The notes under the pieces were generated by a model. The model made no database searches, was not told where the DNA came from, and worked only from the letters and a program-made list of their open reading frames with translations. Below are positions 15,701 through 57,267 of a stretch of DNA of 64,000 nt, piece by piece. Position 1 is the first letter of the stretch, and each line of letters begins with the position of its first letter. Position numbers and translations under genes: made by a program. The stretch is from Nannocystis bainbridge (lineage in GTDB: Bacteria; Myxococcota_A; Polyangia; Nannocystales; Nannocystaceae), in the NCBI RefSeq assembly GCF_028368995.1, contig NZ_JAQNDL010000001.1:1504001-1568000 (forward strand), given 5' to 3'.

Positions 15701-18016
15701 CGGCCGCTGCAGGTGCTGTGCGGCGGCGAGGCGATGACGCCAGATCTGGCGCTCGAGCTGACGCGCAGGGCATCCCGGGTGTGGAACGCGTATGGCCCGA
15801 CCGAGACGACGATCTGGTCCGCGCTGTCGCGCGTCGACGCGGGCCCCAGCCCCGTGCGGCTCGGGCGAGGGATCGCCAATACGCAGCTCCACGTGGTCGA
15901 CAAAGATCTGAGACAGACGCCGGTGGGCGTCCCGGGCGAGCTTTACATCGGCGGGACCGGGCTCGCGCGCGGGTACCTGGGGCGGCCTGAATTGACCGCG
16001 GAGCGCTTCGTGCCGGACCCGTTCTCCGCGGTGCCCGGGGCGCGGATGTATCGCACGGGCGACCTCGTGCGCTGGGACGCGAACGGACAGCTCGAGTTCC
16101 TCGGGCGCATCGATCACCAGGTCAAGATCCGCGGCTTCCGCATCGAGCTCGGGGAGATCGAAGCAGTACTGTCGTCGCACCCGTCGGTGCGAGCGTGCGC
16201 CGTGGGCGTGTGGGAGCCCGCGCCCGGTGACAGGCGCCTGGTCGCGCACGTGGTGCCCGGCGAGGGCGCATGCACCGACGACACATTGCGCGAGCACCTC
16301 GGCGCCGCGCTGCCGACATACATGGTCCCCTCGCTGTTCGTGCGGCTCACGGCGCTGCCGCTGAGCCCCAGCGGCAAGGTCGATCGCAAGGCGCTGCCGC
16401 CGCCCGACGCGACGCGCGACGCGGTCGAGACTTCCTGCGTGGCGCCGCGGAGCGAGGCCGAGCGCGTGCTCGCCGAGCTGTGGTCGGCGGTGCTGCAGGT
16501 GTCGCCGCTGGGGATCCACGACAACTTCTTCTCGCTCGGCGGGGACTCGATCCTGGCGCTGCAGGTGATCGGTCGCGCCAAGCGAGCCGGCCTCCATCTC
16601 ACGGCGCGCGACATGTTCACGCATCAGACGGTGGCCGAGCTCGCGCTGGTGGTGCGGCGAGAGAGCGCCGTGCTGGCCGAGCAGGACGCCGTGCACGGGA
16701 CGGTGCCGCTGACGCCGATCCAGCGCTGGTTCCTGGACGCGGATCCCGTCGATGCTCATCACTACTGTCCCGCGATGCGCTGGACGCCGCCTGCCGGGCT
16801 CTCGCCCGAGGTCGCCGCAGAGGCGCTGCGCATCGTCGCGGCCCAGCACGACGCGGTGCGATTGCGATATCGTCGCAGCGAGTCCGGGTGGGTTCAGGAG
16901 CACGAGGCGGGGGCGACCCTCGCGCTCGAGCGGGTCGATCTTTCGGCGGTGGACGGCGAGGCCCGCGACGCCGCCGCGCTCGAGGCGGTGGCGAGGCTGC
17001 AGCGCGCCATGAACCTCTCCAGCGGCCCGATCTGCCGCGCTGCGTGGCTGGACCTGGGCGAGGCGGGCGCGCAGCTGGTGCTCGTCCTGCACCACCTCGT
17101 CACCGACGGCGTGTCGTGGCGCATCGTGTGCGAGGACCTGCAGCGCGCATGCGAGGCGCTGAGCGCCGGACGGACGCCGGAGCTCGGACCCAAGACGACG
17201 TCGCTGCGCCAGTGGTCCGAGCGACTGCACGCGTTCGTCGCCGGCGGCGGCCTGGCGGAGGAGCTCGGGTACTGGCAGGCGCAGTGCGCTCGCCGCATGA
17301 CCGCGATCGTGCGCGACCGCGACGTCGCGCCGGGCAGCTTCGGCGACAGCCGCACCGTGGAGGTGGAGCTCTCGCCGGCGGATACCAGCGCCCTGCTGCG
17401 CGCGGTGGGCTCGGCGCACGGGACGGAGATCGACGCCGTCCTGCTGTCGGCCCTTGCATCGGCGCTGAGCACCGCCTCCGCGACAGACACGGTCTGCGTG
17501 GCGCTGCAGCACCACGGCCGCGAGCCTGTCGTGGCCGACGTGGAAGTGTCCCGCACCGTGGGATGGTTCTCGACGCTGTTCCCGCTGTGGCTGAGCGTGC
17601 AGCCGGACAACGACCCCGCCGTATTGCTGCGCGACGTGCAAGCGCAACTGCGGTCCGTGCCCGGCCGCGGCCTCGGCTACGGCTGGCTGCGCTATGCGCA
17701 TCCGGACGCGAGCGTGCGCGCGTCGCTCTCGGTGCCCATGCCGGTGGTGTTCAACTACCTCGGGCAGTACGAGGCCGGCTCGCCGTGGTCCTTCGCCGGC
17801 ACGGCGCCCTCGAGCATCAGCCCCAACATGGCGCTGTTTCACGAGCTCGTGGTGAGCTGCATCGTGGTGGACGGGCGGCTGCGGCTCGGCTGGAGCTTCA
17901 GCAGCGCCGTCCACGACACCGCGACGATCGAGCGGATCGCAGCCGCGTTCCTGTCGTCGCTACGGCGAATCATCGAATGCGCGCGCGGGCGGAGGGAGGA
18001 CACGTCTTGCAACTGA
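725..18016 (+). CDS. Five-module NRPS: A1(Ser)-T-C-A2(X)-T-E-C-A3(Ser)-T-C-A4(X)-T-C-A5(Gly)-T-E; no thioesterase
   Basis: Five A domains (TSGSTGxPK, YGPTE, TGDL, QVKIRGFR), five PCP motifs (GGHSL x3, GGDSI x2), C motifs HHIITDEWS x3 and HHILADGWS, E motifs HHLVVDGVSW and HHLVTDGVSW. ORF opens at 698; ATG 725 follows AGGA. Confidence 0.96.
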   Translation: MSMHDESRDVRGFEPRTEQNVAAQQDAGSPADAGDVLRWAGMADPNSPIGRLPQFASDELRQLAAWNDTAVAYPPARCIHQLFEDQAARTPDAVALVFGDQRLSYHELDERANQLAHHLCGLGVSPEVLVGLCVERSLEMVVGLLAILKAGGAYVPLDPGYPRERLAFMLKDARPAVLLTQAHLRDSLPPHDVAIVQLDEGDWQHQPRTPPAVDVGPDHAIYVIYTSGSTGQPKGVLNTHRGLYNRLRWMQRAYGLKASDAILQKTPLSFDVSGWELWWPLIEGARMVIAAPEGHKDPRYLAAILAAADVTVVHFVPSMLAVFLAATEPRERASLRLVFASGEALPEHLRAAWYAGNRGELHNLYGPTEAAIDVTSHACRPDETGPVPIGKPIDNTRTYVLDAAFRPVPVGVAGELYLSGVQLARGYLHRPGLTAERFVPDPLVPGARMYRTGDLARFRDDGALEFLGRIDHQVKIRGFRIELGEIEAAIAAHPSVRDCVVVAREDATGDKRLVAYVVGKDATASELRERLGATVPEYMVPSAFVFLDALPLNPSGKVDRKALPAPETTRSATETYVAPRTDVERALVAIWEELLEVRPIGVRDDFFLLGGHSLLAFRVLSAIQARFGSAPSLTALLRNPTIEALAVLWDPRAERPAPPISLLPRADGEAPFAGLSGTERRIWFLEKLSPQARSYQIPHVFEVASALCVRALRDSVDALVLRHAILRTTYPEVDGAPRREVADDVSIPIRVEDVSALPAAQRDPALRAMLAAEVESRFDLERGPLTRVLAVTTAADRHVVVVHQHHIITDEWSWGLLLAELSSLYEASRRGQTTALAPLAYQYSDYARAERAALAGDGLAASRAYWKQALVEVPRLDLSIVAPAAGAVSGPEGFVSLRLSPEASRQLQALAHESAATPFMAWYAALAAVLSRYSGQQDFGLGAVVANRQIAGTEGMLGFFTNTVVLRTDLAGDPTFAELLARARRTALDAYEHQALPFDVVVQDQGLARQAGENPLFDVTFFEVTPPTTGAAAGWSPRLGAVPEGVTTAKNALAVSVQHTAEGTVVEVLYDTTRVSRIAAERLCGHLSTLVTDAAAHPDRRVSELELLTDEEIEKLAAWNDSPPTDPAARCIHELIAEQAVRAPQAVALEQDGQPLSYGEFEAQVNRLAHHLRALGVGPEVRVALCVQRSFDMVIGLVAILKAGGAFVPLDPSYPPDRLSLLLAEAGAPVLLTHAAIEGRLATPNVTVVRLDVDAAQWASLPTTPPASGVTLDHANYVVFTSGSTGKPKPVINEHRGLAARVAFQRRHIAVHPGDRILFSAAIAFDGAIVDWMLSLCNGATCVLPSNALDAVEGIAECLEHRAITFSFIPPAMLRVLRCRAPALRHITLAGDKTSPALVAQWAEGRQVLNSYGPTEFSIFAAQAWFDPSRPERFSIGRPVHGVRIHLLDGKMRQVPIGMPGEIHLAGVGLARGYLNRPAMTAERFLPDPFASQPGARMYCTGDLARWNEDGELEFLGRVDHQVKIRGFRVELGEVEAALASHPAVASSVVVAREDSPGSTRLVAYVVAKHEALTAASLREHLRGDLPDYMLPSAFVFLDALPLSNNGKIDRKALPAPEAMRGADEAFVAPRTAAERALAEVWSEVLRIAAVGLHDNFFALGGDSILAIQVVGRAKRAGLHVTVRDMFMHQTVAELVQVARSSSAAVAEQAVTGTAALTPSQQWFFSKNPEEAHHFNQAWMWTPSPALSPALVAEALQVVLRQHDALRLRYDHSESGWVQIHAEDAALPLARIDLSALPPDVRRAAVEASADDLQGSLSLSAGPVARAAWLDLGEQGTRLLLVVHHLVVDGVSWRILHEDLERVCEALLAGRTPALAAKTTSFRQWSERLHTFVAAGGLSQELDFWRAQCARGITPLPRDREAAPGTVGDSRTVDVELSEAETRALLHDVSAAYRTEINDVLLSALAAALSKFCDTDTVCVTLEGHGREALIEDVEVSRTVGWFTSMFPVWLTVPATDDPGTLLKGIKEQLRSVPNRGVGYGWLRYAHSDEAVRAALSVDPPVVFNYLGQFDMGTQGRSMFAPAAEPTGRTTSSRMALWHALAVNGGVWQGRLRFEWTYSAAIHDEATVARLAARFVASLRRIIDHCAAGEAFGYTPSDFPLARIEQPALDGLFGAMRDVESVYPLSPLQAGLLFHALNEPESPTYTVQLALQLGGDVDATALESAWKTVLARHAVYRTAFLWQGVPEPLQVVRRSVEFAMPTHDWSSLEVAEAEARWEALRREERAAGFDLGRAPLARVVLVRLPGGRTWMLKTTHHILADGWSMPVVLGELQAAYAANRGGRRLALPEPVAYERYIAWLATRDQAASSAFFAAYLAGVEEPTRLPFPPPAQAPAEATREHEQRDASLTAAETEALTAFARRHGLTLNTVVQGALAQLLGRTTGRTDVVFGVTTSGRSAPLRGIERMVGLFINTLPLRARWSGSEIVLEWLQRLQAEQVELRVHEATPLYEVQRASAVGGGRALFDTLLVFENYPVDEAAQQAEALPIVDFQAFEQTSYPLAITVAVGTTLDLRWMWEPAALRGEDIEQLWGHLRTVLLDMVAHPGRRLSELGLLTEAEHATLAAWNDTVVAYPPARCIHALFEEQAARTPDAVALVFGDQRLSYRELDERANQLAHHLCGLGVSPEVLVGLCVERSLEMVVGLLAILKAGGAYVPLDPGYPRERLAFMLKDARPAVLLTQARLRDSLPPHDVATVQLDEGDWQRQPRTSPAVDVGPDHAIYVIYTSGSTGQPKGVLNTHRGLYNRLRWMQRAYALKASDAILQKTPLSFDVSGWELWWPLIEGARMVIAAPEGHKDPRYLAAVLAAADVTVVHFVPSMLAVFLAATEPRERASLRLVFASGEALPEHLRAAWYAGNRGELHNLYGPTEAAIDVTRHACRPDETGPVPIGKPIDNTRTYVLDAAFRPVPVGVAGELYLSGVQLARGYLHRPGLTAERFVPDPLVRGARMYRTGDLARFRDDGALEFLGRIDHQVKIRGFRIELGEIEAAIAAHPSVRDCVVVAREDATGDKRLVAYVVGDQAIVSELRERLGATVPEYMVPSAFVFLDALPLNPSGKVDRKALPAPDASRGPAETFTAPRTDVERALVAIWEELLEVRPIGVRDDFFALGGHSLLAVRVVSAVKARLGFGLTLATLLRRPTIAALAASLAGIETQPGPALSPAPRGAAEPAYDGLSGTERRIWFVDKLAPEARSYQVPHVFVVRGALSLPALRQSVERLAERQEILRTTYPEVDGALMRRVADSVAIPLRVEDVSALSDSAREVALRAHLEAEIAVPFDLATGPLTRALVVSLAAEHHVVLVLQHHIITDEWSSGVLLSELSRLYEACCRGEAAELPALAYQFADYARAEQAALTTGGFAASRAYWKHQLAGVPRLELPIVRTGPERGPEASVTLGVPPAASRALQALARDHGCTPFMAWYAALTAVLSRYSGQTDFGLGAVIANREVAGTADLLGFFTNTVALRTDLAGDPSFAELLARARRTALDAYEHQALPFDVVVQEQGLARQAGENPLFDVTFFEVTPAKGDAAAGWSPISGPVPRGVTTAKNALAVSVQHTAEGTVVEVLYDTTRVSRVAAERLCGHLSTLVTDAAAHPNRRVSELDLLTDEETEKLAAWNDTPRTDPAARCIHELIAEQAVRAPQAVALEQDGQPLSYGEFEAQVNRLAHHLRALGVGPEVRVVLCVERSFDMVIGLVAILKAGGAFVPLDPSYPSDRLSLLLAEAGAPVLLTHAAIEDRLATPNVKVVRLDVDAAQWASQPSTPPASGVTLDHANYVVFTSGSTGKPKPVVNEHRGLAARVAFQRRHIVVHPGDRILFSAAIAFDGAIVDWMLSLCNGATCVLPSNALDAVEGIAECLEHRAITFSFIPPAMLRVLRCRAPALRHITLAGDKTSPSLVAQWAEGRQVLNSYGPTEFSIFAAQAWFDPSRPERFSIGRPVHGVRIHLLDGKMRQVPLGMPGEIHLAGVGLARGYLNRPAMTAERFVPDPFSNQPGARMYCTGDLARWNEDGELEFLGRVDHQVKIRGFRVELGEVEAALASHPAVGSAVVVAREDSPGSMRLVAYVVAKQDDLTPASLREHLRSDLPDYMLPSAFVFLDALPLSTNGKVDRKALPSPEAMRGADEAFVAPRNDVERALVAIWEQLLEVRPIGIDDDFFALGGHSLLAVRVASAVKTRLGLGLTLATLLRRPTIAALAASLVEMETRPGPALSPSPRGAAAPAYSGLSGTERRIWFVDKLAPKARSYQVPHVFVVRGALSLPALRHSVERLAEQQEILRTTYPEIDGVLMRRVADSASIPLRIEDVSTLPEAIREAALRAHLESEIGTRFDLATGPLTRALVVSLGAEHHVVLVIQHHIITDEWSSGVLLSELSRLYEACCRGEAAESPALAYQFADYARAEQEALTTGGFAASRTYWKNQLANVPRLELPIVRAAPARGPGLEASAALRIPLAVSRGLQALARAHGCTLFMAWYAAFAAVLSRYSGQQDFGLGAVIANREVPGAAELLGFFTNTVVLRTDLAGDPSFAELLARARRTALESYEHQALPFDVVVQDQGLARQAGESPLFDVTFFEVTPPTTSAGAGWSPLVEAMPTGLVTAKQALALGVLHDAEGTEVSLAYDTTRVDAGAVERLARHLQALVQDGVLHPDKRLSQLDLLTAAEHTELAAWNDTTAAYPAESCVHELFAAQARRTPAAVALVFGAQQLTYQELDERSNQLAHHLRGLGVGPEVLVALCVERSLEMVVGLLGILKAGGAYVPLDPSYPRERLAFMLTDARPAVLLTQARLRDSLPPHEVVTVHLDAGAPAWKQPRTPHAVAVGPDHPSYVLYTSGSTGRPKGVQILHAALTNLLHAFAEQTAIGPQDALLAVTSMSFDIAGLELFMPLIRGAAIHLVSRDDASDGEALVSALDRATMMQATPATWRMVLDAGWKGERPLQVLCGGEAMTPDLALELTRRASRVWNAYGPTETTIWSALSRVDAGPSPVRLGRGIANTQLHVVDKDLRQTPVGVPGELYIGGTGLARGYLGRPELTAERFVPDPFSAVPGARMYRTGDLVRWDANGQLEFLGRIDHQVKIRGFRIELGEIEAVLSSHPSVRACAVGVWEPAPGDRRLVAHVVPGEGACTDDTLREHLGAALPTYMVPSLFVRLTALPLSPSGKVDRKALPPPDATRDAVETSCVAPRSEAERVLAELWSAVLQVSPLGIHDNFFSLGGDSILALQVIGRAKRAGLHLTARDMFTHQTVAELALVVRRESAVLAEQDAVHGTVPLTPIQRWFLDADPVDAHHYCPAMRWTPPAGLSPEVAAEALRIVAAQHDAVRLRYRRSESGWVQEHEAGATLALERVDLSAVDGEARDAAALEAVARLQRAMNLSSGPICRAAWLDLGEAGAQLVLVLHHLVTDGVSWRIVCEDLQRACEALSAGRTPELGPKTTSLRQWSERLHAFVAGGGLAEELGYWQAQCARRMTAIVRDRDVAPGSFGDSRTVEVELSPADTSALLRAVGSAHGTEIDAVLLSALASALSTASATDTVCVALQHHGREPVVADVEVSRTVGWFSTLFPLWLSVQPDNDPAVLLRDVQAQLRSVPGRGLGYGWLRYAHPDASVRASLSVPMPVVFNYLGQYEAGSPWSFAGTAPSSISPNMALFHELVVSCIVVDGRLRLGWSFSSAVHDTATIERIAAAFLSSLRRIIECARGRREDTSCN

Positions 18017-24740: not shown

Positions 24741-26411
24741 TCACGTGAGCAGCTCGGCGAGGGGGAGCGTGCGGCAACCCCTCGTGCGCAGCCACGCCTC
24801 GACGTCCGCGCCTTCGGCGGTGTGAAAGCCGGCGGCGATCGAGGCGAGCCCTCGCGCGAGCCGCCAGGGCTCGGCGGACTGCTCGAGCATGTCGCAGACG
24901 CGGAAGGCCGCGCTGATGCCCGCCAGCGGCGGTTCGACCAGCGCGGCGCGCAGCGCCTGAATCAGCGGTGATTGAGCCGGCGCGAGCCAGAACAGCCGCG
25001 AAGCGAACGGCGAGCCGGCGGGCAGCTGCCCGGCGATCGCCGCCGGCAGCTCCGACGGCCGGCCGACGGCGATCCACTCGTCCGCCGGCGCGGTCGCCTG
25101 CGTGGCCGACCCGCCGCGCGCCGGCCCGAGTTCGAGCGCCGTGAGTTGCCCCGGGGCCAGGTCCGCGAGCGCGACTTCGAGGCAATGTTCGCCGGGCCCG
25201 GGGGCTTCGCTGCCGTACTTGAGGCCGTCCGGATGGTGGTAGAGCACGAATTGCTGCCACTCGTCGTCGCTGCGATCGACCACGAAGATCCCGCGCCCCA
25301 CGGCCGCCAGCGGGCGACGCAAACCGGAGTTGACCACGCGGCTCCGCATCTGGACCGTGTCGAGCGCCGCGCCGTCGGCCGCACGCACAGTGAAGAACGA
25401 CAGTTGCGCGAACCAGCGGTCGATCGGGAGCAACTGACACCCGCGCCGCCGCAACCACGCCTCGACCGCGTCGGCGCTGCCCGTGTGAAAGCCAGTCGTC
25501 ACCTGGATCGTGCGGCGACCGCCGATCGCCTGCTGCTCGGGCGCGATCAGGTCGGTGAGGCAAAAGGCGTGCCCGGCGATCCTGCCCATCTCCTCGGCGA
25601 TCCGGCGCCCGTCGTCGCTGGCGTCGCACACGGGCTCGGGGATGGCCGCGAACAGCTCGTCGGGGATCGAGGAGCTCGCGGCCACCAGGAAGAACAGCTT
25701 GTCCGCCAGCGGGCCAGCTGCGGGCACCGGCTCGGTGAACGCCGGCGGCAGGTCGCGGAGGCGATACACGAGCAGCCGTTCGCCCGCGAGCAGGCTGGTG
25801 ATGTCGACCGCGCGACACTTCGCGGCGTTGCCCACCCGGCGGACTTCGAAGCCCGGGAACAGCACCGGCAACACCGCCTGCATTCGCCCCTGCGAGTCCT
25901 CCACGCGGAGATGACGGCCGCGCGGCTGGTAGAGGAACATGTGCTGCCAATAGGCCCAGCCGCGCGCCTCGAGCAGCGCGTCGAGGTAGACGCTGAACGA
26001 ATTCGTCAGCGCTCGCGCCTCGCCGGAGTCCTCCTCGACCAGCGAGAAGCCGCCAGAGCGGCGCGCGAGCCCGAGGTAGCTGGTGTCGTACGGAAAATCG
26101 ATCGGGATCCAGCGACCGCCGCCGATGCGCTCGGCGACCCGCGCGAGCGCACCGACGGGGAGCATCCGGATCGCCCCGCGCGCGCCGAAATCACGCCACC
26201 GCTCCTGGCGATGCGACCAGCGAATCTCGACCCCGTCGAGCTCGGCGTAGAACGCCCGCAGCGCGGCAGGCAGGCGCCGGCCGAGCTCGGCCTCGGCCCC
26301 GTCGAGCTCGGCCCCCGACGTCGGTGCCCCCAGCGTCTGCTTGTCGGTCGTGATGTCGGGGTGCGCGGCGAGCTCGTCGATCAGCGCATGGAAGCGGGCC
26401 CGCAACGTCAT
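24741..26411 (-). CDS. SMI1/KNR4 (SUKH)-like protein with duplicated C-terminal domain
   Basis: APTSGAELDGAEAELGRRLPAALRAFYAELDG...SFSVYLDALL; ATG 26411 overlaps the upstream TGA (ATGA). Confidence 0.72.
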   Translation of the reverse strand: MTLRARFHALIDELAAHPDITTDKQTLGAPTSGAELDGAEAELGRRLPAALRAFYAELDGVEIRWSHRQERWRDFGARGAIRMLPVGALARVAERIGGGRWIPIDFPYDTSYLGLARRSGGFSLVEEDSGEARALTNSFSVYLDALLEARGWAYWQHMFLYQPRGRHLRVEDSQGRMQAVLPVLFPGFEVRRVGNAAKCRAVDITSLLAGERLLVYRLRDLPPAFTEPVPAAGPLADKLFFLVAASSSIPDELFAAIPEPVCDASDDGRRIAEEMGRIAGHAFCLTDLIAPEQQAIGGRRTIQVTTGFHTGSADAVEAWLRRRGCQLLPIDRWFAQLSFFTVRAADGAALDTVQMRSRVVNSGLRRPLAAVGRGIFVVDRSDDEWQQFVLYHHPDGLKYGSEAPGPGEHCLEVALADLAPGQLTALELGPARGGSATQATAPADEWIAVGRPSELPAAIAGQLPAGSPFASRLFWLAPAQSPLIQALRAALVEPPLAGISAAFRVCDMLEQSAEPWRLARGLASIAAGFHTAEGADVEAWLRTRGCRTLPLAELLT

Positions 26412-29086: not shown

Positions 29087-30205
29087 TCACTCGGCGGCGA
29101 GCACCGCCAGCGCGTCCGACGACTCGTAGTAGACGGCGTCGAGCCCACGCAGCAGCGCGGCCCGCTGTTCGCGGGAGAACACCGGCTCTAGCGACTTCAA
29201 GACGCGAGGGTCGTAGAAGCGGAAATACACGCGGTCCGCCTCGCCCTCGACCTCGACCATCAAGAACTGTCGCAGGTGCCGCCGCACCGCCTCGAGCGGC
29301 TTCTTGCTGACGAGGAACACGCCCCACGCGTCGCCCCAGCCCTCATGGACCAGGCGCTCGAGCAGCAGGGAGTCGGCCCGCAGCTGGACCACGTACGGCG
29401 CCACGTCGTCGAACGCGCGGCCCCTCTCGCCGTCGAACAGCGAGGCGTAGGGATCGACGCTCTCCTCGATGAGCTGGAGCGCCCGCTCGGAGCGCGCGGC
29501 GTCGACGACCGCGTAGAGCGTGCCCGCGTCGCACGGGGCCCGGAGCGTGGCGAGAGCGGCGAGCCCCGCCTCGCTCGGCGTGACCGGCCCGGGCGGCGGC
29601 GTGTAGTCCTCGACGAGGAAGCGGAAGCTCGTGCGGCCGGCCGTCATCCACCCGCGGCTGGCCAGCTCGCCGACGAAGCACGGCTCGCCGTCGACGGCGA
29701 TCCGGTGCGGGTCGAGGGCCTGCACGTGGGCGCACACGCCGTCCCACACGATCTGGAAGTGCGGCGAGCCGCCGGCATCGGCGTGGACCACGAAATCGGA
29801 CCGCGCAGTGCCCACGGTGCGCGGCTCACCCGGCTCGAGGATCAGCTTGTGGTAGCTCTCGCGGCCCGACCATACTTGCAAGATCGCTCGACGCCTCGTC
29901 GCCGGCCCGAGCGGCAGCAGGTGATAGCGCGCGAACGTGTAGTCGAGCTCGCCGAGCGCGTCGGCGTATTCGGGGTCGAGCTCGCCGAACTCGCGGAGGC
30001 CGAGCGGACCGAGGTTGGTGCGCGCGCGATCGTCAGGGTGAGGGATCCGGCCGCGGGCGGTGGTCCGGGCCATGAACTCGAGCTGGACGGCGATCGTTCG
30101 CAGCGCGGGCCAGCGCGAGGGGTCGAGCGCGCGGGTGTGGGCGCGGGCCTCGGCGAGCACCTCCGCGAAGGCGTCGCGCGACGTGATCCGCATCAGCTCG
30201 GACAC
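29087..30205 (-). CDS. Tsi6-like immunity + degenerate FHA + DUF4123 T6SS adaptor fusion (copy 1)
   Basis: N-term QLEFM...NLGPLGLREFGELDPEYADAL; middle VGT..SDFVV..HFQIVWDG..VDGEP..AGRTSFRF; C-term LYAVVDAAR..SLFDG..APYVVQL..WGVFL..HLRQFLMV..YFRFYDPRVL. Confidence 0.85.
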   Translation of the reverse strand: MSELMRITSRDAFAEVLAEARAHTRALDPSRWPALRTIAVQLEFMARTTARGRIPHPDDRARTNLGPLGLREFGELDPEYADALGELDYTFARYHLLPLGPATRRRAILQVWSGRESYHKLILEPGEPRTVGTARSDFVVHADAGGSPHFQIVWDGVCAHVQALDPHRIAVDGEPCFVGELASRGWMTAGRTSFRFLVEDYTPPPGPVTPSEAGLAALATLRAPCDAGTLYAVVDAARSERALQLIEESVDPYASLFDGERGRAFDDVAPYVVQLRADSLLLERLVHEGWGDAWGVFLVSKKPLEAVRRHLRQFLMVEVEGEADRVYFRFYDPRVLKSLEPVFSREQRAALLRGLDAVYYESSDALAVLAAE

Positions 30206-30208
30206 GCG

Positions 30209-31198
30209 TCAGCCCCACGGGTGAAAGCGCTTGGGGATCATGACCTGCGTGGCGCCGCCCTTGCAGTGCACGGGATCCGCGAGCGACCAATCGTCGACGA
30301 TGGGGGCGGCGGTGCTCTGGAGGCCGAGAGCGGGATCGCCGAAGGTGACCTCGCGCGGCTCGCGGACCACGGGCGGCGGGCTCGGCTTGCCGTCGACGAG
30401 CGCGTAGGCGGAAGACGAGCAGCCGACCTCCTCCGGCGTGATCGACGGGTCGAGCGTGAAGTACTGGCCGGTGCCGGCGCCCGGGATGCTGCGCTGAAAC
30501 AGGGTCTGCTCGCTGAACGAGCGCACCGAGACGGGCCGGCTCAGGTCGATGCCCTTGATGTGCGAGAGGATCTGGCTCGGCTTCATCTTGCTGGGCCCGT
30601 GCGCGGCGTAGAACTGATAGGCGACGGCGTAGCGGGTCTGCACGCGCAGCTCCGCGAGGCCGTCGTCCGCGTCGTCCTGGGCGGCGAGCTCGTGCTTCGA
30701 GACGTCGAGGTCGGCGAAGGCGTCGCGGCCGCTGCGGGCGCCGGGCGGCGGCTCGTCGTCGTCGAGGGTCGCGCTGCCCGGGTCGGACGCGATCGGCTCG
30801 GCGGAGTCGTCGAAGGTGTCGACCGCGACGCGCTGGCGCTCGCACTCCTCACAGAAGGGCGTCCCGCGGCGCGCGGCGACCCGGAGCGCGAAGCTCTGCG
30901 GGGTGTCGCCGATGATCACGGTCGGGCAGCCGGCCGTGATCATGTCGCCCGAGGCGTGCACGGCGGGATCGGTGCGGCGCGCGGCCTGGCGGTGATTGAT
31001 CAGCACGGTCGCCGAGCCCTGCTTGATCTTGTCGGTCGGACCGACCGGGAAGCACACGACGCGATCGTCCTTCCGCGCCGCCGGGAGGAAGCCGACGATC
31101 ACGTCGGCGCTGCCCGAATAGATCGGCCCGCCGACGTGCGGCACGGGCCCGTCTTTGGGGCAGCTGTGATAGTCGCTGATCCGGGCGGCTTCGGGCAT
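30209..31198 (-). CDS. PAAR protein with C-terminal Ntox46/Tse6-like NAD(P)+ glycohydrolase toxin (copy 1)
   Basis: EAARISDYHSCP..PAARKDD..QAARRTD..GCPTVIIG; toxin SHIKGID..GQYFT..QSTAAPIVDDWS..GGATQ. Confidence 0.88.
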   Translation of the reverse strand: MPEAARISDYHSCPKDGPVPHVGGPIYSGSADVIVGFLPAARKDDRVVCFPVGPTDKIKQGSATVLINHRQAARRTDPAVHASGDMITAGCPTVIIGDTPQSFALRVAARRGTPFCEECERQRVAVDTFDDSAEPIASDPGSATLDDDEPPPGARSGRDAFADLDVSKHELAAQDDADDGLAELRVQTRYAVAYQFYAAHGPSKMKPSQILSHIKGIDLSRPVSVRSFSEQTLFQRSIPGAGTGQYFTLDPSITPEEVGCSSSAYALVDGKPSPPPVVREPREVTFGDPALGLQSTAAPIVDDWSLADPVHCKGGATQVMIPKRFHPWG

Positions 31199-33829: not shown

Positions 33830-36022
33830 TTGAGCACCCCAAAGGTCATCGGGTTGAACATCCGCAAGGAGGCGAGCGGACGCAGCGCCAAGCTCGGCCT
33901 GCTCCCACGCGGCGCACGGATCGAGCTCGGCGAGCGCTCGTCGGACGGCAAGTGGGCGCGGATCGGCCGCGTGGTGTCCGGCCAGATCGCCCCGGTGCAG
34001 CAGAACGGCGCCCTCGATCCCACGGCCGCCACCGGCTGGGTGTTCATCGGCGAGCTCGATCAAGGCGCCGCCCAGCCCGAGGTGTTCGACGAGGTCGTCG
34101 CCCCGGCCAAGCCGGTCGCGATGGCGGCCGGCGAGTTCGTCGGATACATCGGCGAATATCAACAGCACGTCGACGCGCTGCAGACCCCGGTCCGCGGGCG
34201 CCGTCCGCTGCTCCACCTCGAGGTGTTCAGCGGCGACGACGTCCCGGGCTTCATCGAGAAGTGCCGGCAATACGCCAAGACGCTGCCGGCCGGCAGCGGG
34301 ACCCTGTTCGTGGTCGAGAAGGGCGCGAAGCTGGTCCAGCCCGCGTCGTCGAACGGCGAGATCGGGGCCGACGACCCGGTGGCGCCCGTCGCCAGCAAGG
34401 CCGCCGGCGCGTGGGTGCAGGTCAAGCGCGCGACGCTGCAAGTGCTGGAGCGCCGCCCGCTCGGCGAATACGACACCGCGACCAAGACCTACGCCAGCGG
34501 CGCCGTCTTCACCGGCTGGTTCGTGGGCGCGCAGGACGGTCAGCGCACGCAGGACGAGGCCGCCTCGGGACGCCTCGGCTATACGCGACGCGAGGTGCTG
34601 GTGCCGACGGGCCAGCCGGTGTGGGTGGAGCGCTCGGCGCTCGACGCCCGGGCGACGGCGTGCGTGCCGTTGAAGACGTGGAGCGAGTATCCGCTGCGGG
34701 TGGCCAACGCCGCCGATCCGCCGGTCACCCTCACCCGCGTGATCTCGAAGACGGAGCTCGAGCGCACGCCGGCGAGCGGGCGGGCCACCGACCCCGATGG
34801 CAACCTCTGGTGGCGCGTGTCGGCGCGGCGCGACCCCGACTCGAGCGGCAACACCACGGCCGTCGGCTGGGCCTGTGAAAAGGGCCACGACAAGGTGTCG
34901 TGGCAATCGCCGTGGGCCTGGCCGGGCTTCGAGTTCGTCGAGGAGGGGGAGATCGAGCCGGTCGATCAGTGGTCGACGATGCTCTACCGCATGGGCATGG
35001 CCAACGACGAGGAGCTGAGCGACTTCAAGATGCGCGCCGACAAGGTCGACAAGAGCGCGCTGCTGCAGAAGCTCTACGAGCTGATCGACACCAACAAGAA
35101 CTGGATCTTCGAGCCCCACGAGCTGCGCGCGGCGATGCGGCAGCCGCTGCTGGCGCAGGCGTTGAGCCGGATCCTCAGCCGCTACGAGAGCGAGTGGGGC
35201 GGCGAGGACGCCAAGTGGGACGCCCTCGACCCGCTGGTCCTCGACGGCAAGCCGGAGTGGCAGGCCGAGAAGCTGCGGATCAAGGGGCTGCGGTGGTGGC
35301 CGCAGGTGGCCGCCAAGGTGCAGGGGTTCCCGAGCAGCCCGGTGGCCTACCACATCCATCCGACGGGCCTCATCGAGAACTTCTACTCCCAGCCCAGCGC
35401 CACCGCCGCCAGCGCCGACACCGGCGGCGCGCGGGAGAAGAGCGGCGCGGTGTGGGTCAGCCGCTTCATGCCCAGCCAGGCCATCTCGGACCTCAAGGAC
35501 CCGTTCCGCACGAGCGTCACGAACTTCTTCAACGCCCTCGCCACCGCGGGCGTGGCGAGGAACATCAACACCACGCTGCGCCCGCCGCAGCGCTCCTATT
35601 TGATGTACTACGCCCGCGAGATCACCGCGGGCCGGCTCGCGCCCGACAAGGTGCCCGCATTCGTCCCGCAGGACGGCGACGCGCCGGTCAACATCGACTG
35701 GGCGCACCTCGACAGCGCGGGCAAGCCGAACCTCACCGCCGCCCGGCAGGGGGCGCGAGAGATGGACACGAGGTACGGAGCCGCCGGCGCGATCGGCATG
35801 GCCTACCGGTCGAATCACAACAAGGGCCAGGCGATCGACGTCAGCTTCACGCCGGCGTGGGGCGTCGGCAAGAGCGTCGTCGACGCCACCGGCAAGACCG
35901 TGGCGATCGGCTCGAAGCGAGACCTGCTCGAGGTGGGCGCGACCTACGGCGTCTACCACTGGACCTACCACGGCGCGAAGACCAAATCCGACGAGCCGCA
36001 CTGGTCGCTGACCGGGAATTGA
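33830..36022 (+). CDS. Putative peptidoglycan-targeting effector: SH3b-like start, second half of M23/WHIX-like domain, EF-hand-like loop, C-terminal M15-type peptidase
   Basis: GLNIR..GWVF; VAMAAGEFVGYIGEY..LLHLEVF; IDTNKNWIFE; TLRPPQRSYLM..SNHNKGQAIDV..DEPHWS. TTG start after GAGGGA. Confidence 0.72.
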   Translation: MSTPKVIGLNIRKEASGRSAKLGLLPRGARIELGERSSDGKWARIGRVVSGQIAPVQQNGALDPTAATGWVFIGELDQGAAQPEVFDEVVAPAKPVAMAAGEFVGYIGEYQQHVDALQTPVRGRRPLLHLEVFSGDDVPGFIEKCRQYAKTLPAGSGTLFVVEKGAKLVQPASSNGEIGADDPVAPVASKAAGAWVQVKRATLQVLERRPLGEYDTATKTYASGAVFTGWFVGAQDGQRTQDEAASGRLGYTRREVLVPTGQPVWVERSALDARATACVPLKTWSEYPLRVANAADPPVTLTRVISKTELERTPASGRATDPDGNLWWRVSARRDPDSSGNTTAVGWACEKGHDKVSWQSPWAWPGFEFVEEGEIEPVDQWSTMLYRMGMANDEELSDFKMRADKVDKSALLQKLYELIDTNKNWIFEPHELRAAMRQPLLAQALSRILSRYESEWGGEDAKWDALDPLVLDGKPEWQAEKLRIKGLRWWPQVAAKVQGFPSSPVAYHIHPTGLIENFYSQPSATAASADTGGAREKSGAVWVSRFMPSQAISDLKDPFRTSVTNFFNALATAGVARNINTTLRPPQRSYLMYYAREITAGRLAPDKVPAFVPQDGDAPVNIDWAHLDSAGKPNLTAARQGAREMDTRYGAAGAIGMAYRSNHNKGQAIDVSFTPAWGVGKSVVDATGKTVAIGSKRDLLEVGATYGVYHWTYHGAKTKSDEPHWSLTGN

Positions 36023-36034
36023 TTCGCGCGAACA

Positions 36035-36106
36035 GACATGTCGCAAAGGACATGTCCGACGCACCGGCGTCGCGCGCTTCTGAGAACATGTCTCGAAGGA
36101 CATGTC
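36035..36106. repeat. Two copies of the GACATGTC-N6-GACATGTC element
   Basis: GACATGTC GCAAAG GACATGTC (36035-36056) and AACATGTC TCGAAG GACATGTC (36085-36106), between convergent genes. Confidence 0.75.
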
Positions 36107-36154
36107 TGACGAGTCGCGGGGTCGCTGACAAGAACCGGCGGCCCGGCGCCGCGC

Positions 36155-36643
36155 TCACGACGAGAACATGTAGAGCCGACGCGCGATCGCCCGCGGGCAC
36201 CGGCCGATCGGGTCGCCGACCTTTGCCCGGTTGCTGAACTCCTCGTCGGCCGCGGGGGTGGGCTTCGGCTGCGCCGGCGACTTCTCGCCGTCCCCGGTGT
36301 CCTGCGCCGCGGCCTCCTCGCAGAGCCGATCCATCACCTCGGTGGCGGACTTGGGGTTCGCCTTGGCGAGCAGCTCGGCGGCCCACGTGAGCTTCGGGTC
36401 GACGTCGAACTGCTCGCCGAGCACGGCGGCCAGCGCGAGGAAGCGGCTGACGTCTTTCTCGGAGGTGATGTGATGCGCGGCCGCCCGCTCGATGCCCGCC
36501 TTGACCTTGCCGAGGAGCTCCGCGCCGCTCATCCCCGCGACGGAGGGGAGCTGCTCGCCGAGGCGCTTCACCATCTGCGCCTCGAAGTCACGAGCGCCGG
36601 CCTCCGCGAGCTGGGTCATCTGTTGCTTGACGAACTTGAGCAT
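36155..36643 (-). CDS. Small helical T6SS-accessory-like protein (similar to 54573..54932)
   Basis: MLKFVKQQM...IERAAAHHITSEKDVSRFLALAAVLGEQFDVDPKLTWAAELL; tail VGDPIGRCP. Confidence 0.65.
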   Translation of the reverse strand: MLKFVKQQMTQLAEAGARDFEAQMVKRLGEQLPSVAGMSGAELLGKVKAGIERAAAHHITSEKDVSRFLALAAVLGEQFDVDPKLTWAAELLAKANPKSATEVMDRLCEEAAAQDTGDGEKSPAQPKPTPAADEEFSNRAKVGDPIGRCPRAIARRLYMFSS

Positions 36644-37039
36644 GGCGGCCGAACTACAGCTTCCATTTTTATCACTTCCGCTGCGCCCGCGCGACCGGGG
36701 CGGCGCACGCCGGACGCACGAGAGTTCGCCCTGGCTCGCCCCGCGGGCGCGCGATGCGTCCCAGGCGCAGCCCGTGCCGTGCAGGCTCATGTGCCTGTGC
36801 GTGCTGGCGCTCGCTTCGAGGACCGAGAGCGACGAGACGCGGCTGGCGCAGGCCGAGGTCTTCCGCTCTCGTGTCATCGTCGGGGCGTGAGCGCACTCGA
36901 GCGTCGGGCGTCTGTCCGCCGGGCCGAGCCAGGCCCGCGCGGACGCAGCGGCCGCCTTGCGCCGCCCTGGGCCCGTCGATATCCTCGCTCATGAGAACGC
37001 GCGTCGGAGCGACGCGACCGATCGGCGGCGGGTGGCGGG

Positions 37040-38407
37040 ATGGCGACCAAAGAGTTCCCTGATTATTGCGAGTTGACATTCCGGACCGAGGGCGGCCACC
37101 TGCCGAGCGTCCTCAAGGCGCACTGGCCGGGAGGCGTGTCAGGTGTGACCATCGGCCCCGGATACGACATGGGCCAGCGCAGCGCCGCGTCGATCCGCAC
37201 CGACCTCGCCAACGCGGGTGTGCCCCAGACCAGCATCGACAAGTTCGTGGGTGGCGCCGGCCTGACCAGCACCTCCGCTCGCGACTGGGTGAACACGAAC
37301 GCCGACTCGATCCCCCTGCTGACCCGCGACCAGTCGATGGCCCTCTTCACCCACGTGTACCCGGTGTACGTCGGGTACACGAAGAGCATCATCCGGTCGT
37401 GGGGCGGCAACTGGGACGCTTACCCGCAAAAGATGAAAGAGGTGCTGGTCGACCTGCGATTCCGCGGCGACCTCTCCGAACGGCACAAGCCCCGCCTGTT
37501 GCCGTCGATCACGGCCGCCGACTACCCCGCATTCCGGGCGGTGATCCACGACCACAAGTACTGGGTGGACAACACCAACCTCCGGAACGCGCGGGACGGC
37601 AGCATCAATCAGCGCATCACCGCGCGCAGCGCCTGGTTGCCGGCGGAGCCGGGGACCCAGGCCGCGGCCTGGGTGTTCCCGTTCCCGGACAACGCAGGCA
37701 AGGACGTCCAGGACGGCGGCTATTACATCGGCTCGCCGTCGCTGAGCGCAGCGGCCCTGCCGAAGGCGGACGACGGCTTTTACCCGATCGGCGCGAGCGG
37801 CATCTGGCACGGCGGGATCCACTTCGACGCCGGGACCGGGACTCAGCTCAAGCAGGTCGACGGCGTCCGCTGCATCAAGGACGGCGAGGTCGTCGCATAC
37901 CTCGTCAATCAGAAGTACAAGGAGATCGCGTTCCCGGCGGAGGACAAGAAGGCGCTGTATTCGTCCGGGTTCACGTTGATCCGGCACAAGCTCGAGTGCC
38001 CGGGGGCGCCGCCCGCCCAGCCGGCCGCGCCTGCCACGACGACCCCCGCGCAGACTCCTGCGTCCGGCACGCCCACCAACCCCGCGCCCGCAACGCCAGC
38101 CCCCGCCACGCAGGCGCCCGCCAAGACCCCTCCGCCCGCTCAAAACGCGACGCCCGCCAAGCCGCCTCCGCCCGCCCAGCCGGCCGCGCCCGCCAAGCCG
38201 ACCCTGACCTTTTACAGCCTCTACATGCATCAACTCGACTACGAGGGCTATCAAAGCGACGCCCAGCGCAAGCGCCCCAAATATTGGGGGCCGGCGAAAG
38301 AATACGTGGTCGGAGAGAAGGCCAAGGATCAGCAGGAAGACGGGCCGGAGCCGGCCGAGCCGGAGCTGCTCGGGGAGTGCGACGAGATGGCCTGCTGGTC
38401 GGAGTAG
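37040..38407 (+). CDS. Pesticin-type muramidase fused to first half of M23/WHIX-like domain
   Basis: TEGG..HWPGGVSGVTIGPGYDM..EVLVDLRFRGD (pesticin C-like); GFYPIG..WHGGIHFD..VRCIKDGEVVAY..FTLIRH..FYSLYMHQ; Pro/Ala/Thr insert near 38000-38200. Confidence 0.78.
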   Translation: MATKEFPDYCELTFRTEGGHLPSVLKAHWPGGVSGVTIGPGYDMGQRSAASIRTDLANAGVPQTSIDKFVGGAGLTSTSARDWVNTNADSIPLLTRDQSMALFTHVYPVYVGYTKSIIRSWGGNWDAYPQKMKEVLVDLRFRGDLSERHKPRLLPSITAADYPAFRAVIHDHKYWVDNTNLRNARDGSINQRITARSAWLPAEPGTQAAAWVFPFPDNAGKDVQDGGYYIGSPSLSAAALPKADDGFYPIGASGIWHGGIHFDAGTGTQLKQVDGVRCIKDGEVVAYLVNQKYKEIAFPAEDKKALYSSGFTLIRHKLECPGAPPAQPAAPATTTPAQTPASGTPTNPAPATPAPATQAPAKTPPPAQNATPAKPPPPAQPAAPAKPTLTFYSLYMHQLDYEGYQSDAQRKRPKYWGPAKEYVVGEKAKDQQEDGPEPAEPELLGECDEMACWSE

Positions 38408-53513: not shown

Positions 53514-54464
53514 TTACCGCGGCCGACCGAGATCCTTGAGCACGGCCCCGGTCGTCCGATCGACGATGCGCAGCGCGTGCGATGTCTTGGGCCCGTCGCA
53601 TTCGAAATACACGCGGGTGGCGGTCCCGACCATCGCGTAGCCGCCGGTCCCGCCGCACGACGAGGTCCACAGCACGGTCCCGGTGCGCGCGTCGATCGCA
53701 GAAGTCTCACCTTGCCGGATCAGCACGGTGCCGCCGACGAGATCGAGGGCCTCGATCCTGCGGCCCTTCGGGTCGAACGGCAGCCGGTAGGTCGGCTGCC
53801 CCGCCGTGTCGTAGCCGACGATCGTGACCTCCGGTGTGCCCGGGCTCTTGACCTCGATCCCGACCGATTCACCGGTGACCGGGTCCGTCAGCCGCGCCTT
53901 GCTGGTCACGAAGTCGCCCTCGCAGCGCGCGTGCTTCACCGTGGTGCACAGCAGCGGGAGCGAACTCGAGTCGCAGGCCGGCGGCGTCGCGGCGTCGTCG
54001 CGCTGGCCGGTCGCCACGTCGAGCACGAAGCGCACATGATCGATCTGGTGGACCCCGACCTTGTCGCCCTCGACACACAGCCGCTCGACCTCGTCGGTCA
54101 GCGCGAGCGTGGTGCGGGTGGCCCCGTTCGTCGACTCGAGGATCTCCAGCCCTCGCGCCCGCGCTATCACGACCGCCCCGCCGGCGACGACTGCCTCGTC
54201 TCTCGGTTCGATCCGCAGATCGGGCCGGCGCCACAGCGGCTTGAAGGTGGCCCCGTCGAGCGCGAGCACGCCGTCGTCCACGAACCACGCCACGACATCC
54301 TCGAGCCCGTCGCCGTTGAAGTCGCCGAGGACCGGCGGCCCGCCCATCCAGAACCGGTACTCCGTGGGGTCGCGCTCCTTGGCGCCGAGACAACCGACGA
54401 GCGCCGTCAGGGCGAGCCCAGCCGCGCTCGCGGCGCTCCTCCGACCTCTGCGTGCATGAAGCAT
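53514..54464 (-). CDS. Lipoprotein with FG-GAP/PQQ-like beta-propeller repeats
   Basis: Lipobox LVGC; GDFNGDGLEDVV; ALDGATFKPLW, AIDARTGTVLW, VDRTTG repeats. Start uncertain. Confidence 0.72.
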   Translation of the reverse strand: MLHARRGRRSAASAAGLALTALVGCLGAKERDPTEYRFWMGGPPVLGDFNGDGLEDVVAWFVDDGVLALDGATFKPLWRRPDLRIEPRDEAVVAGGAVVIARARGLEILESTNGATRTTLALTDEVERLCVEGDKVGVHQIDHVRFVLDVATGQRDDAATPPACDSSSLPLLCTTVKHARCEGDFVTSKARLTDPVTGESVGIEVKSPGTPEVTIVGYDTAGQPTYRLPFDPKGRRIEALDLVGGTVLIRQGETSAIDARTGTVLWTSSCGGTGGYAMVGTATRVYFECDGPKTSHALRIVDRTTGAVLKDLGRPR

Positions 54465-54572
54465 CGAAAGCACTCTACCCGATCTCGCAGCCCGACGACG
54501 GCTGCGTCCACGCGCGCGATCGCGGCGGCGCGCGATCATGAGACACCGGCGCCGACGCGCGTCCTGCTACGA

Positions 54573-54932
54573 TTACCGCCGGGCGTCCTCGTATCGCCGC
54601 ACCTCGGCGATGCCCGCCTGGTACCACAGCTCGGCGATCGGCGCGTCGCCCTCGCGCGCCGCCACGATCTCGCGGGCCCACGGCTCGCGGGTATCAAAAT
54701 CGTCGCTGAAGCTCAGCATCAGCGCCGCGATTTTGAACACGTCGCGCTCCGCGTTCATCGCGTAGTCGGCGGCCTTGACCGTCGCCGCGCGCACGACCTC
54801 GAGCGCCTGCGGGTCGCCTGGCCACACCTGCGTCGGCCCGTAGTGTTGGCGCAGCAGCGCGAAGATCCGCCGCTCCGACGCGTCGCGGGCGGCGGCCGTG
54901 ACCTCGCCGCGTTGATGGGCATCGAGCTTCAT
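54573..54932 (-). CDS. Small helical T6SS-accessory-like protein (similar to 36155..36643)
   Basis: MKLDAHQ...KAADYAMNAERDVFKIAALMLSFSDDFDTREPWAREIV; ATG 1 bp after the upstream stop. Confidence 0.68.
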   Translation of the reverse strand: MKLDAHQRGEVTAAARDASERRIFALLRQHYGPTQVWPGDPQALEVVRAATVKAADYAMNAERDVFKIAALMLSFSDDFDTREPWAREIVAAREGDAPIAELWYQAGIAEVRRYEDARR

Positions 54933-54933
54933 G

Positions 54934-56118
54934 TCAGTCGTCGTCCGCCTCGTCGGGGGCTGCGCGGTCGATGTGCACGTGGCTGGCGATGTCGAACAGC
55001 GACTCGACCTTCGAGCCGCCGGACGTCGCGGCGTCGGGGATCCCGTCCTCGTTGGTGTCCGGCATCTTGTCGGTCGGCGACGGCACCGCCGCGCTCGACG
55101 GATAGACCGCGCTGGGCCCCTTCTCGAGCAGGACCACGCGCGAGCGGACCGACCGCGCCGCGTTGTAGAGCCGCAGGTAGGCCGCCCGCCGGGTCGCACC
55201 TCGCATGTCCCGCTGGCCGATCGGCTGCATGTCGAGCGCGCCGCCGTGCTGGTGGTTGCTGTTGGGGACCTTGCTGCCGGCGGCCAGGTTGCGCCGCGGG
55301 TTGCGCCACCCGCTCGACACGTGGACCCGCCCGCCGTACGCCGCCTCGGTCGCGGTCAGCAGCTCGGTCATCGCCGAGTCGAGGATGAGCTGATAGTTGC
55401 CGCGCAGGTCGGCGCGGTCGGTCGCCTTGATGTGATTGCGGTAGGGCACGTGCAGCGTGAACTTGTCCCGCCACATGCGCTGGTCGACGTACTCCTGGCG
55501 GATGATGTCGCGCTCGTCCTGCGTCACCACCTCGACGATCTCGTGCGACTTGCCCCCGTGGGTGATGGTCGCCTTGATGCTGTACTGCACCGGCGGGTTC
55601 GGCTTCTTCGAGGCCGTGATCGGCCGCTGCGCATTGGTGACCTCCGGCGTGTAGTCGAAGCGGTTGCCGGTGCCGGTGCGCTTGGGGATCGTGCCGCTGT
55701 GGGTGCCGACGGGCGTGACCTCCCACGTCGCCGACGCGCCCTCCGGCGAGGCGACGCGGACGCTCAGGGTGCGGAACGACCTGCTCACGTCCTTGCCGAC
55801 CAGGAAGATGAACTTCGAGGCGACGACCCACTCTTTCTCGGAATAGCGGGTCTTCGCGGTGTACTGGCTGCGGTGCTCGAGGATGATCTGCGGCGGGCAG
55901 GTCGCACAGTCGCCGCCCGCCGGCTTGTCGCCGAGCTGCTGATCGGCGGCGGTGCCGGCGTTCTCCATCGTTTTGGAGAAGCGATTCGTCTGGCCCTGGA
56001 CCGGCTCCGGCGACACGGCCCGACCGGTGAAGCTGCCGGGCTGGCCCGAGGTGTTCGGGTTCAGCAGGTCCCACGTGAACCGCGGCGCGGTCAGTCCATT
56101 GTTCCCGGTTCCGCTCAT
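54934..56118 (-). CDS. Putative effector with C-terminal peptidase M15 (D-Ala-D-Ala carboxypeptidase-like) domain
   Basis: VSSGWRNPRRN..NSNHQHGGALDM..SHVHID zinc motifs; directly downstream of the DUF4123 gene; no obvious signal peptide. Confidence 0.8.
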   Translation of the reverse strand: MSGTGNNGLTAPRFTWDLLNPNTSGQPGSFTGRAVSPEPVQGQTNRFSKTMENAGTAADQQLGDKPAGGDCATCPPQIILEHRSQYTAKTRYSEKEWVVASKFIFLVGKDVSRSFRTLSVRVASPEGASATWEVTPVGTHSGTIPKRTGTGNRFDYTPEVTNAQRPITASKKPNPPVQYSIKATITHGGKSHEIVEVVTQDERDIIRQEYVDQRMWRDKFTLHVPYRNHIKATDRADLRGNYQLILDSAMTELLTATEAAYGGRVHVSSGWRNPRRNLAAGSKVPNSNHQHGGALDMQPIGQRDMRGATRRAAYLRLYNAARSVRSRVVLLEKGPSAVYPSSAAVPSPTDKMPDTNEDGIPDAATSGGSKVESLFDIASHVHIDRAAPDEADDD

Positions 56119-56145
56119 CGCCCCACCACCCGTCCCGGCGCGCGC

Positions 56146-57264: not shown

Positions 57265-57267
57265 GCC

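Follow-up and report, generated by a model that had tools for sequence, protein, structure and literature searches.

WHIX is a bipartite domain named for the motif WHxxxH and is sufficient for type VI secretion system (T6SS) export (PMC12135965). Its cavity, built from both regions, caps the final residues of VgrG, and the VgrG4 tail bound by Awe1 reads K688-V-S-F-S-G-R694 (PMC12135965). Subclass II 'double-blade' WHIX effectors, such as Aeromonas jandaei Awe1, carry peptidoglycan hydrolases at both ends of one chain (PMC12135965). Here we describe two genes, A and B, in a 64,000-nt stretch of Nannocystis bainbridge (contig NZ_JAQNDL010000001.1, positions 1,504,001–1,568,000; hereafter the window, whose positions give all coordinates). 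The pair resembles double-blade effectors in its WHxxxH motif, bipartite domain and terminal hydrolases and differs in having two genes, sometimes unlinked, in place of one. Sequence comparison supports reading A and B as complementary halves of one double-ended T6SS effector of the WHIX type, with a wall hydrolase on each half. Shared too, in proteobacterial relatives, is linkage to a vgrG with an FSG-type tail; in Nannocystis the tail lies on a separate, putative adaptor, and no flanking immunity genes were seen.

The published WHIX survey applied a 70% coverage filter (PMC12135965), which would leave out B-type halves. Each WHIX half lies in its own open reading frame (ORF) here, and no single polypeptide reaches coverage of at least 70%; coverage-filtered surveys miss split effectors of this type. 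The available text of the survey and of its preprint describes no split form, and a literature search, with most subscription papers outside its reach, returned no paper describing split WHIX. If the reading is true, the locus encodes a natural split secretion domain, with two effectors that must meet for export, and suggests a two-piece way of loading toxins onto the injection needle.

Gene A and gene B

The host genome is 11 Mb in five contigs, has its nearest relatives at protein level in Nannocystis, and carries one copy each of A and B. Gene B (37040–38407, + strand) encodes 455 aa, comprising an N-terminal pesticin/T4-lysozyme-like muramidase (37040–37651, +), the first WHIX part (37652–38335, +) and a 23-aa acidic tail with C447 and C452 (38336–38404, +) followed by the stop. 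The muramidase, already named in an earlier note made from the sequence alone, was recovered by Pfam (pesticin domain, E 1e-8) and by fold search of the model (pesticin, Z 9.2 over 167 residues). Residues E17, T37 and D43 are positioned like the catalytic residues of pesticin (T201 and D207 per PDB titles); the counterpart of E17 is presumably pesticin E178. The first WHIX part contains WHGGIHF (37805), DGEVVAY, FYSLYMH and YVVGEKAKD (38303–38329), a Pro/Ala linker at about 38000–38200, and invariant H257, H261, H316 and H397.

Gene A (33830–36022, +) encodes 730 aa from a TTG start and carries the second WHIX part and a C-terminal M15-type peptidase. Its layout is an SH3b body, a second M23-like segment, an inserted beta region, a helical region with WPGF, YESEW and HP motifs, and the peptidase. 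The SH3b body (33845–34069, +) starts at GLNIR (residues 8–12) and was identified by Pfam SH3_3 (E 4e-5), alignment and fold search (SH3b, Z 7.3, residues 6–79). The second M23-like segment (34115–34228, +) runs from VAMAAGEFVGYIG at 34115 to the end of LLHLEVF at 34228, includes invariant H129 and E131, and is coil in the model of A alone. The conserved helical WHIX region (34862–35383, +) contains W347, W362, YESEWGG and HIHP; its equivalent in relatives carries an EF-hand-like motif. The M15/LAS-type zinc peptidase (35474–36019, +) was detected by Pfam (M15_4, E 0.002) and by fold search (Ply500/VanY-type M15, Z 5.5–6.2, residues 549–730). Both Pfam matches in A fall under the curated cut-offs, and the fold searches back the SH3b-like start and M15-type peptidase that the note had read from the sequence. 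We take R584, H663, D670, E722 and H724 to fill the usual roles of M15/LAS peptidase motifs. Foldseek with each half returned nothing at E ≤ 0.001.

On the window sequence both ORFs are intact and their motifs lie where the note had placed them. The inverted accessory gene reported between them is present; its likely start is 36643 (162 aa) and not 36877.

One WHIX domain on two chains

Residues 200–435 of B and 1–518 of A align to consecutive segments of the same single-chain proteins in BLAST searches against 211 proteins. The proteins that cover the A part well include 47 single-chain proteins, which bear out the expectation that A and B would match adjacent segments of full-length relatives, and 39, A included, that start at the GLNIR motif. 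Together B and A cover single-chain P0174, P0175 and P0199 (WP_186164592, WP_074263003 and WP_144898349) at 32–44% identity. These three occur in the available supplement of the WHIX paper, where at least three of six accessions searched were found; their listing in the published dataset and the WHGGIH motif of gene B uphold the suggested link to the WHIX class. This WHxxxH signature (B residues 256–261) is invariant in three alignments, and residues invariant in single-chain WHIX remain invariant on either side of the break. A PDB sequence search with the single-chain alignment returned only GH19 toxin domains and, weakly, an SH3, and no solved WHIX.

The break falls in an expanded loop just past strand YVVG, which we read as the first SH3b strand, because the spacing from the YSLYMH motif to the LNIR-type motif grows across single-chain relatives toward the split clade. 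It is 31 residues in one compact single-chain member, 45–52 in several, 93–103 in Burkholderiaceae, and 120–123 acidic residues in the Stenotrophomonas sisters of the split clade. Judged from the compact relatives, the first SH3b strand of the gene A domain would sit at the end of gene B. The split bears on the question raised by the WHIX authors about the sequence between the two WHIX regions.

The note had also described the two parts as halves of one M23-type fold. This stood for the A half, where hhalign matched residues 96–135 to the M23 profile (probability 68%, E 5e-5). The B half scored weakly (probability 0.5%, E 0.11), and fold searches of the separate halves gave no M23 rows. The canonical zinc and catalytic motifs of M23 peptidases are HxxxD and HxH. 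Both are altered here, to HGGIH in B (HxxxH) and to LLHLE in A (LxH, the first His replaced by Leu). The order of motifs (HxxxH, DG, YxH, G..G..G, HxE) and the alignable A segment resemble M23 (LytM-type) peptidases, whereas these substitutions and long insertions, including the SH3b, set the region apart. It is probably a non-catalytic M23 derivative, and its invariant residues B H257, B H261 and A H129 may together make up one metal site across the two chains.

The same genome encodes a distant single-chain WHIX-like protein of 1083 aa near a vgrG (G000:C2:1881002–1884253, − strand), with an N-terminal M23 domain and WHGGVH. Two further single-chain proteins of 700 aa, P0011 and P0012, start with the same pesticin-like domain and have a distant WHIX-like core with a peptidoglycan-binding insert.

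Conservation and distribution of the split

The 36 B-type proteins aligned fall into a single clade (support 0.957); for the A part, the corresponding clade (support 0.985) takes in 24 of 30 rows labelled split. Of the six split-labelled rows that were not counted, three are broken elsewhere (L027, L044, L045) and two are without context (P0163, P0164); the sixth is L078. Members of the split clade come from Nannocystis, Archangium, Lysobacter and Stenotrophomonas. Two single-chain proteins, P0158 and its cluster-mate P0394, nest in both split clades, keep the B-type tail, and look like a secondary re-fusion. B-type toxins are pesticin-like, M23, GH73 or Slt/lysozyme-like, and A-type toxins are M15, GH19, lysozyme-like or pesticin-like. 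The acidic tail has at least two Cys in 35 of 36 B-type proteins and is absent from the two unsplit sister proteins; it arose with the split and may be a zinc hook. The split halves are under purifying selection, with dN/dS below 1 for all parts (0.04–0.51 against Nannocystis punicea; 0.18–0.36 for an unlinked pair).

Gene A was found in 6 of 11 Nannocystis genomes and B in the same 6, one copy each. The other five, 64–88% complete, had neither half apart from one weak linker hit. In three of the six the halves are unlinked, either some 1 Mb from each other or on separate contigs, with B behind vgrG and A elsewhere, beside hcp in two cases. Among 400 scored Xanthomonadaceae genomes, 22 carry the A core, and three of these are of the present split type, each with an adjoining B. 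A 400-genome phylum sample yielded no A core beyond two weak matches (E ~3e-4) and, for the B core, 63 weak matches mostly in long ORFs. The split system is rare. A WHIX double-blade effector has undergone fission at one site, and both halves are conserved and co-occur even where they are unlinked.

The order A, inverted accessory gene, B is shared by the window and the complete chromosome of N. punicea FL3 (L001). This establishes the split proposed in the note as real and refutes misassembly. The family does include the occasional single-chain gene that is broken (L027, L044 and L045), but a pseudogene or read-through of one gene is, like misassembly, scarcely credible: A is upstream of B, an opposite-strand gene separates the two, both halves are under purifying selection, and dozens of split orthologues break at the same site. 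Elsewhere, Stenotrophomonas and two 6.2-Mb Xanthomonadaceae genomes have the order vgrG, (immunity), B, A, immunity; one of these two genomes carries the protein named from Lysobacter enzymogenes. The order is vgrG, B, A in N. radixulma, and the Archangium gephyra halves have adjacent accessions. A second split at the same junction, with a different layout, occurs in G674 (L277:4141–7928; P0043, P0210), where a WHIX first part with a C-terminal M15 toxin is followed by an immunity-like lipoprotein and a compact second part with a lysozyme-like toxin.

The reversed gene order, which the note had treated as meaningful, was dropped as a feature; relatives have B then A adjacent, or unlinked genes, and the order varies among them. 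The mix-and-match of toxins proposed there holds between lineages, where toxins have been exchanged independently on each half over evolution. Within one cell it is unsupported because each of the genomes examined has a single split A and a single split B; combinatorial pairing in the cell was rejected on that count.

Experimentally studied orthologues

V2a of Stenotrophomonas rhizophila CFBP13503 (WP_141057882.1) is an orthologue of B, 50% identical over residues 203–452. V2b (WP_141057883.1) is the orthologue of A, and one V2b-like cluster member shares 54% identity with A along its length. In the available text of the S. rhizophila study, V2a and V2b (Tse2a and Tse2b) are treated as two separate amidase effectors of the vgrG2 operon, each being detectable in cells whereas the supernatant gave little effector signal (PMC13340143). 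Single deletions of V2a and V2b lower killing of some targets, and the target ranges differ (PMC13340143). WHIX is not mentioned in the accessible part of that account of V2a and V2b. The locus differs from the window in having B then A behind vgrG2, with immunity genes, and a B toxin that is Slt/lysozyme-like and not pesticin-like (PMC13340143). Deletion ends for V2b were read from primer translations only, by which the published deletion appears to retain roughly the first 197 codons, and the published primer end matched no locus examined. S. maltophilia S25 has the same four-gene layout and S377 a 1200-aa fused form at the same vgrG2 site, two arrangements that the available text of PMC13055248 does not link. 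The V2a/V2b pair can be reinterpreted as split WHIX, and with mutants already existing the idea is directly testable. L004 (JAHREJ010000029.1), titled Bacillus subtilis, bears a Stenotrophomonas-type T6SS locus, which is probably contamination or mislabelling.

Probable pairing of the two chains

The B half folded alone had 10-residue block pLDDT values of 33–66 over residues 201–330, from an alignment of 48 rows that is shallower than the 90 rows for A. Residues 81–130 of A were without strands when A was folded alone. These models fit with B needing A more than A needs B. Production of V2a and V2b from one vgrG operon, and their AF3 ipTM of 0.61 (PMC13340143), speak for a two-chain effector, as does the second split at the same junction in G674. 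Physical pairing of A and B, counting obligate and one-way forms together, is likely, and so is the reassembly as a heterodimer suggested in the note.

It is improbable that the halves no longer interact and act as separate effectors, with each half-domain repurposed for wall binding or as a separate loading signal. The genes can be 1 Mb apart, and in S. rhizophila the immunity genes are separate, the target ranges of single mutants differ, and the available text implicitly treats V2a and V2b as independent (PMC13340143). Such a loss of contact is, however, hard to reconcile with the single-chain invariant residues kept on both sides of the break, the strict one-to-one co-occurrence, the failure of the B half to fold alone, and the secondary re-fusion P0158/P0394 nested in the split clade.

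Accessory gene and probable docking tail

The accessory gene (36155–36643, − strand; 162 aa) encodes one helical domain of an unnamed family, a linker and a C-terminal tail, RRLYMFSS (36155–36181, −). The tail matches the [RK]xxx[FY]S[GSDN] ends of WHIX-linked VgrGs. An [FY]S[GSDN] end is present in 70 of 73 non-Nannocystis VgrGs directly upstream of a WHIX gene, the three exceptions looking broken, and in 0 of 19 other VgrGs of the same loci; these counts are not independent, many rows being orthologues. The pattern suggests that WHIX docking tails follow a general sequence rule. The window contains no VgrG, and the tail is missing from all 13 VgrGs of this genome. Among 9,816 likely coding ends of the genome, [RK]xxx[FY]S[GSDN], a motif defined after the sequences had been seen, has two matches: the accessory gene, and an ORF that overlaps an opposite-strand gene and looks spurious. 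The match of the accessory gene end RRLYMFSS to the docking tail of WHIX-linked VgrGs is new here and was missed in the earlier note.

The accessory family is large and helical, with 6,466 representatives at 50% identity, and found no significant match in PDB, Pfam or NCBIfam; all its Atlas clusters were unnamed. Among its 149 top matches, 11 of 11 short forms end in FS[SAM] and 0 of 138 long forms do. The domain recurs beside DUF4123/VgrG genes. Copies with the tail are found at or close to WHIX halves in the window, L001, L009, L141, L182 and L184, and tail-less paralogues adjoin other toxins. The locus points to a role for the family as adaptor lobes of the T6SS, with the VgrG tail copied in one branch. 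A single contig of run X16 (~93% alike) crosses A and the accessory gene; it comes from an RNA library, is no proof of transcription and was not used, and no contig piece from the read runs spans the whole locus.

Because its end matches the tail of WHIX-capped VgrGs and no VgrG here has one, the accessory gene is probably a detached docking adaptor. Comparison of these ends indicates that the docking tail motif has moved from VgrG to the accessory protein in Nannocystis, and the A and B pair has a good chance of docking there. Alternatively, and compatibly with reassembly, the accessory tail may resemble the VgrG tail by chance or ancestry, the pair docking on the Nannocystis VgrG that ends in ERGSK. 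B lies directly behind such a VgrG in four Nannocystis genomes, an 89% orthologue of it is present in this genome at C1:3.69 Mb, and the motif was defined in hindsight. We consider ERGSK docking rather unlikely. The same type of VgrG is found in L185 ahead of a non-WHIX toxin, together with an accessory paralogue that has no tail, and the accessory tail shows zero amino-acid change against N. punicea over 20 codons (dS 0.38) and is retained across members only ~30% identical.

A probable partner of the accessory protein is the Tsi6-like and DUF4123 adaptor gene (29087–30205, −; 372 aa), whose DUF4123 domain spans residues 230–349 and which ends just past that domain. A DUF4123 gene adjoins the accessory gene or a paralogue in L009, L141, L184 and L187, and lies 6 kb from it in the window; in several related loci the accessory gene comes directly behind a DUF4123 gene that stops just past the domain. 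The neighbouring PAAR-Ntox46 gene (30209–31198, −) is part of the same recurring T6SS auxiliary module. In the available text on TecT/co-TecT, the spike-binding lobe, a DUF4123 domain, is encoded separately from the lobe that binds the effector (PMC11582642). The gene arrangement here is alike, with a DUF4123 gene without the effector lobe near a separate small partner gene, and differs in that cargo binding by the accessory protein appears to use a copied VgrG tail.

T6SS setting and weighing of the mechanism

The genome has 13 VgrG and 3 VipB matches and, read by eye, TssB/C, Hcp, ClpV and TssA/M/L/K/J-like genes. One of its VgrGs (G000:C1:3690451–3692604, L186), the 89% orthologue of the VgrG that precedes B in other Nannocystis, has no WHIX half behind it. 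Delivery of A and B by the T6SS is very likely.

In the mechanism we favour, an ancestral single-chain double-blade effector was cut inside the expanded acidic loop at the SH3b start, as alignment and trees show. The two chains would pair in the cytoplasm, B giving the first strands and A the remainder, and so rebuild the WHIX cavity. In proteobacteria the cavity caps the FSG-type tail of the adjacent VgrG, as published for Awe1 and in keeping with the motif shown here. In Nannocystis the accessory protein, likened to a detached effector-binding lobe, would supply the tail and be tied to the spike via the DUF4123/PAAR/VgrG module. The pair would be injected into the target periplasm, where fold and motifs predict cleavage of glycan by the muramidase and of stem peptides by the M15 peptidase. 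Each chain carries one toxin, and each can therefore be replaced or moved independently over evolution, as the toxin exchanges between lineages show. This overall reading, a two-chain WHIX cargo effector with pairing and accessory docking, is somewhat better than an even call.

Several observations weigh against it. Signal-peptide immunity genes were found beside neither A nor B in the window or L001. Flanking immunity genes are present in the Stenotrophomonas and Lysobacter split loci, and a search of the present genome with the Stenotrophomonas immunity proteins gave no homologue (best E 0.11). In G674, the VgrG upstream of the second split is without an FSG tail, and the tail counts above are weakened by shared ancestry. 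In metagenome locus L081, B and A are present, but neither a VgrG nor an accessory gene was detected in 15.9 kb. In L183 (G037:C2:7.67 Mb), B and the accessory gene both break near their 3′ ends and the unlinked A is intact, reflecting co-decay or assembly error in a genome that is 80% complete. A folded alone gave a mean pLDDT of 87 and a recognisable SH3b. In the AF3 table of the S. rhizophila study, V2b with V2a has an ipTM of 0.61, which is below the authors' 0.75 cut-off and equal to that of the non-cognate pair V2a and Tai2b2; other non-cognate pairs there scored 0.17 and 0.22 (PMC13340143). The authors assign most killing to V2b and V5, and a dV5 dV2a strain was built, yet in the available text only dV5 dV2b is called strongly impaired (PMC13340143). 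That text describes rescue by V5 and says nothing about V2b alone in this respect (PMC13340143). The naming of dV5 dV2b alone as strongly impaired suggests that an A-type chain is deliverable without a B-type chain.

P0047 is another B with an altered end.

The double-mutant text (PMC13340143), the confident fold of A alone, the intact A in G037, where B and the accessory gene are broken, and the location of most of the conserved WHIX length on A would all suit an asymmetric piggy-back. A would then be self-sufficient and bind the tail alone, B would be an optional passenger on A, and the heterodimer would be obligate only for B. We regard this as unlikely, for no A-type gene was found without a B-type gene in the six Nannocystis genomes with A or in the three split cases among the 400 Xanthomonadaceae genomes. 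The name-giving WHxxxH moreover lies in B, and the published cavity is built from both regions.

A more far-reaching form of the two-chain mechanism, which falls a little short of an even call, would place these effectors in a third WHIX subclass. They would be obligate two-chain effectors whose secretion domain, possibly with a His3 metal site (B H257/H261 and A H129), takes shape only in trans, and they would work even where the genes are 1 Mb apart. The subclass would have at least two origins at the same junction and, in myxobacteria, loading by an adaptor that mimics the VgrG tail. If this is true, assembly is an AND gate that co-delivers a glycan cutter and a peptide cutter, with the toxins evolving as free modules.

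Other features of the window

A second PAAR-Ntox46 and Tsi6-DUF4123 module lies at 53514–58314 (−). It also holds an M15_3-type toxin (54934–56118), a short accessory-type domain without the FS tail (~54573–54870) and a lipoprotein. A kinase-like gene lies upstream of this module at 58479, as at 31267 for the first. A weak SMI1/KNR4-like domain in the 3′ part of a long ORF (24741–26411, −) is a possible orphan immunity gene near the first PAAR-Ntox46 module. The left part of the window (698–18016, +) encodes a 5,772-aa non-ribosomal peptide synthetase with condensation, adenylation and carrier domains.

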